Shown here piece after piece: positions 49,281 to 50,308 of a stretch of DNA of 64,000 nt. The notes below the pieces were generated by a model that saw only the letters and a program-made list of their open reading frames with translations, searched no databases and had not been told where the DNA came from. The stretch's first letter is position 1; each line of letters starts with the position of its first letter. Made by a program: the position numbers and the translations under genes. The DNA is from Escherichia coli (lineage in GTDB: Bacteria > Pseudomonadota > Gammaproteobacteria > Enterobacterales > Enterobacteriaceae), in assembly GCF_013315695.1 (NCBI RefSeq), contig NZ_CP054353.1; one strand, 5' to 3'.

Positions 49281-50054
49281 GTGGCAGTGACATATTCGAT
49301 TGGCATTGATTCCGGCTCAACCGCCACCAAAGGGATCTTACTGGCTGACGGCGTGATTACGCGCCGTTTCCTCGTTCCAACACCCTTTCGCCCGGCAACA
49401 GCAATTACTGAAGCCTGGGAAACTCTGCGCGAAGGGTTAGAGACAACGCCGTTTCTGACGCTCACCGGCTACGGACGGCAACTGGTGGATTTTGCCGATA
49501 AACAAGTGACGGAAATCTCCTGTCACGGGCTGGGCGCACGGTTTCTTGAGCCAGCAACGCGCGCGGTAATCGACATCGGTGGTCAGGACAGCAAAGTGAT
49601 TCAGCTTGATGATGACGGTAACCTGTGCGATTTCCTGATGAATGACAAATGCGCGGCGGGCACCGGGCGTTTCCTGGAGGTGATCTCGCGCACGCTTGGC
49701 ACCAGCGTCGAGCAACTCGACAGCATTACCGAAAATGTCATACCGCACGCCATCACGAGTATGTGCACAGTGTTTGCTGAATCAGAAGTGATCAGCCTGC
49801 GCTCTGCGGGCGTAGCGCCAGAAGCGATTCTCGCCGGAGTGATTAACGCGATGGCGCGGCGGAGCGCCAATTTCATTGCTCGTCTCTCCTGTGAAGCGCC
49901 GATTCTGTTTACTGGTGGCGTTAGCCACTGTCAAAGGTTTACCCACATGCTGGAAAGCCATCTGGGAATGCCGGTACAAACTCACCCTGATGCGCAATTC
50001 GCTGGTGCAATTGGCGCGGCGGTGATCGGTCAGCGGCAGAGAAAACGCGCATGA
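49281..50054 (+). CDS. yjiL: BadF/BadG/BcrA/BcrD-type ATPase (dehydratase activator-like)
   Basis: IGIDSGSTATKGILL acetate/sugar-kinase-type ATPase motif. Confidence 0.8.
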   Translation: MAVTYSIGIDSGSTATKGILLADGVITRRFLVPTPFRPATAITEAWETLREGLETTPFLTLTGYGRQLVDFADKQVTEISCHGLGARFLEPATRAVIDIGGQDSKVIQLDDDGNLCDFLMNDKCAAGTGRFLEVISRTLGTSVEQLDSITENVIPHAITSMCTVFAESEVISLRSAGVAPEAILAGVINAMARRSANFIARLSCEAPILFTGGVSHCQRFTHMLESHLGMPVQTHPDAQFAGAIGAAVIGQRQRKRA

Positions 50055-50308
50055 AAGAGTATCTGTTTTTATTTCACTCCACGGTCGGCGTCATACAAAC
50101 CCGCAAGGCGTTGCAGGCAGCGGGCATGACTTTTCGCGTCAGCGATATTCCCCGTGATTTACGCGGCGGCTGCGGGTTATGCATTTGGCTGACCTGTCCG
50201 CCTGGCGAGGAAATTCAATGGGTGATCCCTGGGCATACGGAATCAGTTTATTGTCAGCAGGATGGTGGCTGGCGCTGCATTGCACATTACGGGATTTCTC
50301 CGCGTTAA
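50051..50308 (+). CDS. small protein translationally coupled to yjiL (DUF3343-like?)
   Basis: 85-aa ORF starting in ATGA overlap with the yjiL stop; [46 protein letters not shown]. Confidence 0.45.

Follow-up and report, generated by a model that had tools for sequence, protein, structure and literature searches.

YtiA, the DUF3343 protein of the yjiM-yjiL-ytiA operon of Escherichia coli, as a putative sulfur or selenium carrier

Double-cubane reductases and the DUF3343 family

A characterized relative of the E. coli system treated here is the double-cubane protein (DCCP) of Carboxydothermus hydrogenoformans, which is active in vitro with its reductase alone (Jeoung et al., PMC7317905). In the same work, E. 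coli YjiM was made the prototype of the 'class II' double-cubane proteins and YjiL its partner, dependent on ATP, and an ester of CoA or some other substrate of larger size was favored for the DCCPs of this class (Jeoung et al., PMC7317905). Myers et al. count yjiML as an operon that FNR activates directly in anaerobic cells (PMC3688515). Additionally, a preprint by Haft reports that, of 970 proteins with a strong match to the NCBIfam equivalog NF040772 ('double-cubane-cluster-containing anaerobic reductase'), 955 occur in SelD-containing assemblies (bioRxiv 10.1101/2022.07.06.499078).

A second relevant group is the DUF3343 family (PF11823, also named Se_S_carrier), for which Lin et al. (2015; PMC5322559) proposed a role as chaperone in Se/S trafficking, noting a conserved cysteine. 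The partners of DUF3343 in their STRING table include Sec lyase, YedF, a 'CoA-substrate-specific enzyme activase' and an HGD-D subunit in Slackia; they found no selenium-specific DUF3343 subfamily, and members occurred also in organisms that lack SelD (PMC5322559). An explicit link of DUF3343 itself to double-cubane proteins was found neither in the available portions of this paper nor in those of Haft's preprint (PMC5322559; bioRxiv 10.1101/2022.07.06.499078), and the searched literature yielded no experimental study of YtiA or of any other DUF3343 protein.

Here, the two groups are brought together at one E. coli locus, which lies in a stretch of 64,000 nucleotides (the window) and has the gene order mdtM, yjiN, yjiM, yjiL, ytiA, yjiK, yjiJ, kptA, yjiH, yjiG, iadA, yjiE. 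The subject of this analysis is an 85-aa ORF, which stands third in the yjiM-yjiL-ytiA operon.

The third gene of the yjiM-yjiL-ytiA operon

The first gene of the operon, yjiM (RefSeq CDS, 48126..49277, + strand), encodes an anaerobic reductase with a double-cubane [8Fe-9S] cluster, i.e., a class II DCCP. YjiM carries the Pfam HGD-D domain, scores 531 bits against NF040772 (cutoff 350) and has the [8Fe-9S] DCCP of C. hydrogenoformans (6ENO, E=8e-75) as its best relative in the PDB. A strict regular expression of the published 7-Cys spacing does not match YjiM; its assignment to the DCCPs is made because of the equivalog score and because the cysteine columns are invariant with 6ENO. The second gene, yjiL (RefSeq CDS, 49287..50054, + strand), encodes an ATPase of the acyl-CoA dehydratase-activase type (TIGR00241, 358 bits against a cutoff of 125; PF01869, E=7e-75), i.e., an ATP-dependent, electron-transferring activase of the BcrAD_BadFG/CoA_E_activ family. 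An earlier note on this DNA, made from the letters and their ORFs, had spoken of dehydratase-activator operons; in view of NF040772, double-cubane reductase system is a better label here than dehydratase operon.

The third gene, ytiA (50051..50308, + strand, stop codon included), is translationally overlapped with the second. Direct reading of the sequence at 50047-50059, cgcgcATGAaagag, bears out the overlap that the earlier note had pointed to, the ATG of ytiA (50051-50053) and the TGA of yjiL (50052-50054) sharing the tetranucleotide ATGA (50051..50054, + strand). The same 4-nt overlap is found in K-12, Klebsiella, Atlantibacter and the metagenomic contig L009, and in Kosakonia the two genes overlap by 1 nt. 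A purine-rich, putative Shine-Dalgarno (SD) element, AGAGAAAA, is located within the 3' end of yjiL (50038..50045, + strand), 6-13 nt 5' of the ytiA ATG, and comparison of the junctions places a similar stretch at the same position in K-12 (GAGGA), Klebsiella (GGAGG), Kosakonia (AAGGAAG) and Atlantibacter (GGGGAA), the window allele being the weakest of those compared. The position of the start codon is clear, since all of 24 orthologues share M1 and the match to the Pfam domain starts as early as residue 3. A scan of 47900-50500 detected no sigma-70-like promoter, nor a convincing terminator either between yjiL and ytiA or directly 3' of ytiA, a result that is consistent with a single transcription unit and is otherwise uninformative. 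With up to two mismatches allowed, the intergenic region between yjiN and yjiM (48011-48125) contains no FNR box (TTGATN4ATCAA); the nearest match lies inside yjiN (47912-47925), and the FNR site reported by ChIP-seq was not located by this motif search.

Two other groupings of this region were considered and rejected. ytiA does not belong with yjiK, given the 64-nt gap between them and the replacement of yjiK, but not of ytiA, by espX6 in O157:H7. A 323-aa ORF (50262..51233) that overlaps the 3' end of ytiA is not regarded as real, the start of yjiK in RefSeq being the GTG at 50373.

The 85-codon ORF is almost certainly a genuine protein-coding gene and a member of DUF3343, as judged from its sequence. 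The profile search that the earlier note had suggested as a check was run and proved positive, with PF11823 matching at 52.0 bits (gathering cutoff 25, E=5e-14) over residues 3-59 (50057..50227, + strand; profile positions 1-57 of 69). RefSeq has a CDS at identical coordinates, named ytiA and described as 'DUF3343 domain-containing protein' or 'putative Se/S carrier protein', and the counterpart in K-12 MG1655 is b4715 (YP_009518833.1, 'uncharacterized protein YtiA'). The sequence is present in 5385 of 5426 complete E. coli genomes, in 5384 of them over at least 80% of its length. Thus, the remark in the earlier note that such small genes are easily missed by annotation is out of date for this one. 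Since ytiA is already an annotated gene of a named family, known in RefSeq and Pfam, its detection is not in itself new. Abstracts retrieved under the name 'ytiA' are dominated by the unrelated ytiA (rpmE2) of B. subtilis and by work on zinc homeostasis and ribosomal proteins, and none of those shown deals with the E. coli gene; for the latter, neither expression nor phenotype data were found in the searchable literature, and the locus tag b4715 retrieved no paper.

Pairwise comparison (Nei-Gojobori) of ytiA with its counterparts in K-12, Klebsiella, Kosakonia and Atlantibacter gives dN/dS values of 0.15-0.30, with lower values for codons 1-46 (0.09-0.17) than for the C-terminal remainder (0.18-0.46), synonymous sites being saturated between genera (dS 1.4-1.7). 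By these estimates, ytiA is under purifying selection. A database search retrieved 142 homologues from Escherichia, Citrobacter, Klebsiella, Raoultella, Kosakonia, Atlantibacter and Phytobacter. The lengths of homologues range from 74 to 118 aa.

The earlier note had made conservation of the ORF downstream of yjiL in other genomes the test of its reading. The order HGD-D, BcrAD_BadFG, Se_S_carrier is kept in Klebsiella pneumoniae, Kosakonia, Atlantibacter hermannii and contig L009, mostly with the same 4-nt overlap. The triad of A. hermannii is flanked by entirely different genes, and the contig is more distant, its YjiM being 82% identical and its DUF3343 protein only about 37% identical to those of E. 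coli. In O157:H7, an espX6 island takes the place of yjiK directly after ytiA and leaves yjiM-yjiL-ytiA intact; therefore, the unit of inheritance is the three-gene module. The YtiA protein of O157:H7 has 88 aa, the change being confined to the last residues. The operon is decaying in some strains, as in FCI1, where IS50R is inserted in ytiA and yjiM contains an internal stop. The observation made in the earlier note is thus confirmed, and its reading of the ORF as a carrier or accessory protein is supported, matching the candidate role put forward for DUF3343 by Lin et al. (PMC5322559).

YtiA is a 9.6-kDa protein of one domain, no further domain having been matched in its 85 residues. Residues 1-45 form a core that is nearly invariant among Enterobacteriaceae; the majority of positions 5-45 do not vary across 24 orthologues, and D32-I33-P34-R35 and G40-C41-G42-L43 are among these fixed positions. 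When the alignment is extended to 51 DUF3343 members with identities down to 20%, taken from all genomic contexts found, the only invariant residues are F8, P34 and C41, followed by G42 (50/51) and R35 (43/51), giving P34-R35-x5-C41-G42 as the family motif. The protein has five cysteines (41, 44, 49, 68 and 76). Among these, C41 and C44 are invariant or nearly so in Enterobacteriaceae, and C44 completes a CxxC with C41 in about two thirds of the family members (35/51); C49, C68 and C76 vary even between close orthologues and are not conserved across the family. The codons for C41-G42-L43-C44 lie at 50171..50182 (+ strand). An AlphaFold2 model computed from that alignment (mean pLDDT 92.2, pTM 0.83) predicts a ferredoxin-like beta-alpha-beta-beta-alpha-beta-beta fold, with strands at residues 2-8, 28-32, 43-49, 63-70 and 73-79 and helices at 11-23 and 53-57. 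In the model, the invariant P-R...C-G residues frame a 10-residue loop (33-42), and the cysteine motif ends this loop and opens strand 3. A search of the PDB with the YtiA sequence returned nothing significant and no solved DUF3343 relative, the best alignment being to a ferredoxin-type CxxC stretch (E=0.054), and profile searches against Pfam and NCBIfam matched YtiA to no Fe-S or metal-binding family.

DUF3343 genes at double-cubane loci

The wider distribution of this association was surveyed at the level of DCCP loci. The matches listed in a YjiM homologue search (120) were all 86-99% identical; they thus offered no diversity, and the scan of genomes, one per species, was therefore seeded with the 6ENO sequence together with the alignment of YjiM orthologues. 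The 80 loci retained are those nearest in sequence to the DCCP of C. hydrogenoformans; they come from Firmicutes, Deltaproteobacteria, Actinobacteria, Chloroflexi and Bathyarchaeota, and their six-frame ORFs were searched with home-built HMMs within a range of 4 kb.

A YjiL-like activase is encoded within 4 kb at 61 of the 80 DCCP loci. A DUF3343 ORF lies within this distance at 14 of them, in 11 cases inside the operon. Nine of these operons, from four Tepidibacter species, two Dorea, Lachnoclostridium, Mordavella and a Tissierellia MAG, have it between the DCCP and activase genes; in Clostridium ihumii it immediately follows the DCCP gene, and in UBA3567 the activase gene. The Lachnospiraceae and Tissierellia clusters contain an additional full-length DCCP of the YjiM type, 51-59% identical to E. 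coli YjiM. By a rough estimate that assumes a handful of DUF3343 genes per genome, a DUF3343 gene would fall within 4 kb of a given gene by chance in about 1% of genomes, which argues that its occurrence at 14 of 80 loci, in fixed positions within operons, is not due to chance. The gene has remained linked to those of the reductase YjiM and its activase YjiL in different genera and, in part, in different phyla. At the other 66 loci, among them C. islandicus L013, whose protein is 97% identical to the characterized enzyme, no DUF3343 gene was found within 4 kb; some double-cubane systems therefore have DUF3343 as an accessory, but it is not common to all of them.

Other genes of sulfur and selenium metabolism recur at these loci. 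Among the ORFs flanking the DCCP loci that contain DUF3343, Aminotran_5 is the top Pfam family. In all four Lachnospiraceae loci, a gene matching TIGR01977 ('cysteine desulfurase family protein') lies directly upstream of the DCCP gene, with the selenocysteine lyase SclA as its second-best model, at a score below the SclA cutoff. One stretch of a Desulfosporosinus genome (L027) encodes a DCCP, an activase, a desulfurase-family protein, SelD, a YedF-like protein and DUF3343, and another locus (L033) combines YedE ('putative selenium transporter'), TusA and DUF3343 with two DCCPs. A phmmer sweep of the 80 loci found SelD at 7, YedF-like genes at 14, YedE at 2 and desulfurase-family genes at 9, and 33 of the loci have within 4 kb at least one of DUF3343, SelD, YedE, a YedF-like gene or a gene of the desulfurase/selenocysteine-lyase family. 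Likewise, distant members of DUF3343 adjoin TusA and Aminotran_5 genes or a YedF-like protein with TusA and DsrE domains. These neighborhoods agree with the in-silico observations of Lin et al. (PMC5322559) and Haft (bioRxiv 10.1101/2022.07.06.499078). Beside the E. coli yjiM-yjiL-ytiA operon itself, no desulfurase, SelD, YedE or YedF gene is present.

Possible functions of YtiA and comparison with known systems

On account of its gene neighborhood and of one conserved residue, C41, YtiA may be a cysteine-based carrier of sulfur or selenium that works with YjiM and YjiL, the most likely reading, to which we give an even chance. Several points weigh against it: DUF3343 is missing within 4 kb at 66 of the 80 DCCP loci, the C. 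hydrogenoformans DCCP is active in vitro with its reductase alone, the E. coli operon has no desulfurase, SelD, YedE or YedF gene beside it, Lin et al. saw no subfamily of DUF3343 specific to selenium and recorded members where SelD is lacking (PMC5322559), and the substrate favored by Jeoung et al. for class II DCCPs is of another kind (PMC7317905). That the element would be selenium rather than sulfur appears doubtful. In the proposed mechanism, C41 would be loaded with one atom of sulfur or selenium, forming a persulfide or selenosulfide, either from a desulfurase or lyase or from a chemically formed selenotrisulfide, with C44 as a possible resolving thiol, and the loaded YtiA would dock on YjiM. 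YjiL would then charge the [8Fe-9S] cluster of YjiM with low-potential electrons at the cost of ATP, and the charged cluster would reduce the species bound to YtiA to sulfide or selenide for downstream use, e.g., by SelD. Coupling of YtiA synthesis to that of YjiL, when FNR turns the operon on under anaerobiosis, would be maintained by the ATGA overlap together with the SD-like element within yjiL.

A more specific form of this proposal, which we regard as distinctly doubtful, is that YjiM, YjiL and YtiA constitute an ATP-driven selenium-mobilizing module, in which C41 would bear a selenosulfide and the double-cubane cluster, at very low potential, would convert this into selenide for use by SelD; in its most radical version, YtiA would put selenium into the double-cubane cofactor itself. 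If such a module exists, the DUF3343 family and the double-cubane reductases, which are orphans with regard to substrate, would both gain a physiological role, and it would be explained why the latter are almost confined to SelD-containing genomes. E. coli has one of these reductases, YjiM, together with its activase in a genetically tractable operon that FNR activates; within this operon YtiA is the only clue, and overall the best available one, to what the enzyme handles. The presence of DUF3343 in double-cubane operons of Firmicutes, together with Se/S genes at about a third of the sampled loci, makes a role in sulfur or selenium processing directly testable in E. coli.

The same conserved adjacency, the same invariant cysteine and the same cysteine-desulfurase-family genes directly upstream of DCCP genes that support carriage by YtiA could also be read as signs of cluster maturation, whereby YtiA would supply sulfur (or selenium) to build or repair the [8Fe-9S] cluster of YjiM, e.g., its ninth, bridging chalcogenide, and would carry neither substrate nor product. 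Maturation would also suit the formal possibility, raised by Haft, that the cofactor itself explains the correlation between DCCPs and SelD (bioRxiv 10.1101/2022.07.06.499078). However, 66 of 80 DCCP loci, including the Carboxydothermus locus closest to the characterized enzyme, have no DUF3343 gene nearby, and many DUF3343 genes accompany TusA, YedF or a desulfurase where no DCCP is encoded; the family therefore has a role that is independent of DCCPs. A role as maturation factor is considered unlikely.

Improbable, in our assessment, is a non-catalytic function as a small subunit or regulator, in which the ferredoxin-like or PII-like domain of YtiA would bind YjiM or YjiL and modulate the formation of their complex or the coupling of ATPase activity, the cysteine being structural or a redox sensor. 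Still more improbable is that YtiA is a small metal or Fe-S electron carrier, with the enterobacterial C41-x2-C44-x4-C49 binding a metal or an Fe-S center and passing electrons to YjiL. The five cysteines of YtiA, the near invariance of C41 and C44 in Enterobacteriaceae and the weak, non-significant phmmer alignment to ferredoxin-type CxxC segments (E=0.054) would fit such a carrier, but only one cysteine is invariant family-wide, C49, C68 and C76 vary among close orthologues, and YtiA matches no Fe-S or metal-binding family. Finally, the idea that the ORF is spurious, a non-functional by-product of sequence constraints in the 3' end of yjiL and in the downstream intergenic region, could invoke the lack of direct expression evidence in the searchable literature, the weak SD-like element of the window allele and the decay of the operon in some strains (FCI1, with IS50R in ytiA and a stop within yjiM), but it is effectively refuted by the significant Pfam match, by dN/dS values well below 1 at saturated dS and by the AlphaFold model (pLDDT 92), and it sits poorly with an overlap with yjiL of only 4 nt and with conservation in the same operon across genera and phyla.

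The nearest known counterpart of the window gene is YtiA of K-12 (b4715), which is the same gene, of 85 aa, located between yjiL and yjiK with the same 4-nt overlap and 94% nucleotide identity. The window gene is merely another allele, with 9.5 synonymous and 5.5 nonsynonymous differences from K-12 (dN 0.028); its allele class (at least 99% identity) comprises about 1900 of the 5385 genomes, with K-12 in the 90-95% class. YtiA belongs to PF11823 and to the orthologous group of K-12 ytiA by every sequence-defined measure, i.e., score threshold, size and single domain, conserved cysteine and position. The PF11823 proteins encoded beside selenocysteine-lyase-family, YedF and TusA genes share with YtiA the family, the size and the invariant cysteine of PR-x5-CG; they are 22-40% identical to it, and the E. 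coli gene is attached instead to a double-cubane reductase and its activase. The carriage of sulfur or selenium on C41 that the family name implies is putative for YtiA.

TusA and YedF, SirA-like sulfurtransferases (PF01206), are small, single-domain alpha/beta proteins in which one essential cysteine carries a persulfide in sulfur relays. YtiA is likewise a small, single-domain alpha/beta protein, and TusA and YedF-like genes are frequent neighbors of DUF3343. Membership of YtiA in the TusA/SirA family was rejected, as no HMM match was obtained at E values up to 1, CPxP is absent and the cysteine precedes strand 3; any resemblance is a functional analogy only, by which YtiA may work alike. 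An assignment to the PII/GlnB-like proteins was also rejected, as YtiA does not show significant structural or sequence similarity to that group, T-loop and trimer architecture included.

The remaining comparison is with DCCP and its reductase, DCCP-R, of C. hydrogenoformans (6ENO, 7YYL; PMC7317905, PMC9351452), which are the homologues of YjiM and YjiL and share with them the order DCCP, then activase. YjiM is of the shorter, class II type and is 39% identical to the C. hydrogenoformans DCCP over the aligned region. With regard to a third component, YtiA is co-located and co-oriented with a DCCP and an activase, whereas such a protein is not generally present at DCCP loci (66/80 without). YtiA is a third component that is optional in double-cubane systems and that the characterized C. 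hydrogenoformans pair does not have.

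Divergence within the yjiM-yjiL-ytiA operon and its allele classes

The genes of this operon evolve at sharply contrasting rates. YjiM (48126-49277), the double-cubane reductase, retains 82-89% identity between genera with a dN/dS of about 0.05, whereas the identity of YtiA (50051-50308), the small DUF3343 protein, falls to about 37% across the same span, and the dN/dS of its C-terminal half reaches 0.3-0.46.

Within the species, comparison of the segment 49800-50500 across 5385 E. coli genomes separates yjiL-ytiA-yjiK into two deep allele classes with few intermediates, i.e., about 1740-1940 genomes at least 99% identical to the segment in the window and about 3200 genomes at 90-95% identity to it. 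Relative to K-12, dS amounts to 0.15-0.19 in yjiL and ytiA and to 0.06-0.09 in the flanking yjiM and yjiK. The existence of two allele classes, together with the higher dS of yjiL and ytiA than of yjiM and yjiK, suggests that the yjiL-ytiA patch derives from an old recombination event. In the E. coli genome search, 3 of about 5390 matches to the yjiL-ytiA segment are plasmid-borne rather than chromosomal.

Gene boundaries and insertions around ytiA

An ATG-initiated ORF of 323 aa (50262-51233) overlaps the final 47 nt of ytiA. The yjiK start annotated in RefSeq is a GTG at 50373, leaving a 64-nt gap downstream of ytiA, and the resulting 287-aa product carries an N-terminal hydrophobic, signal-like segment ending in FFVQSC.

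The 3' end of ytiA differs in O157:H7-type genomes, where homology to the window stops at base 241 of the gene and espX6, which encodes a type III secretion system effector, takes the place of yjiK. In strain 611 (locus L093) the segment concerned is 2501-5241, corresponding to the window from about 50290 onward. These genomes retain ytiA as an 88-aa variant with an altered C-terminus. In one urinary isolate, FCI1, the operon is decaying (locus L094, 576-4301): IS50R interrupts ytiA after approximately codon 48, and yjiM contains an internal stop.

Elsewhere in the window, two overlapping ORFs of 167 and 91 aa lie on the minus strand just upstream of mdtM (44434-45131) and presumably resemble InsB and InsA of IS1, respectively. 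The longest mdtM ORF (45358-46689) begins with TTG, and its 5' end extends well past the usual mdtM start.

Double-cubane loci in other species

Selenium- and sulfur-relay genes cluster around double-cubane genes, also at loci that lack a DUF3343 gene. Among the 80 loci closest to the C. hydrogenoformans protein (L013-L092), at least 7 carry SelD within 4 kb of the double-cubane gene, at least 14 a YedF-like gene, at least 2 YedE and at least 9 a cysteine-desulfurase-family gene. These are minimum numbers of loci, since a number of Desulfosporosinus loci break off partway through a cluster of this kind.

Five clusters from Lachnospiraceae and a Tissierellia MAG (L069, L075, L077, L081 and L052) each encode two distinct double-cubane proteins that have one activase and one DUF3343 gene between them. 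The first of these proteins is class I-like, with 52-55% identity to the C. hydrogenoformans protein, and the second is YjiM-like, with 51-59% identity to E. coli YjiM.
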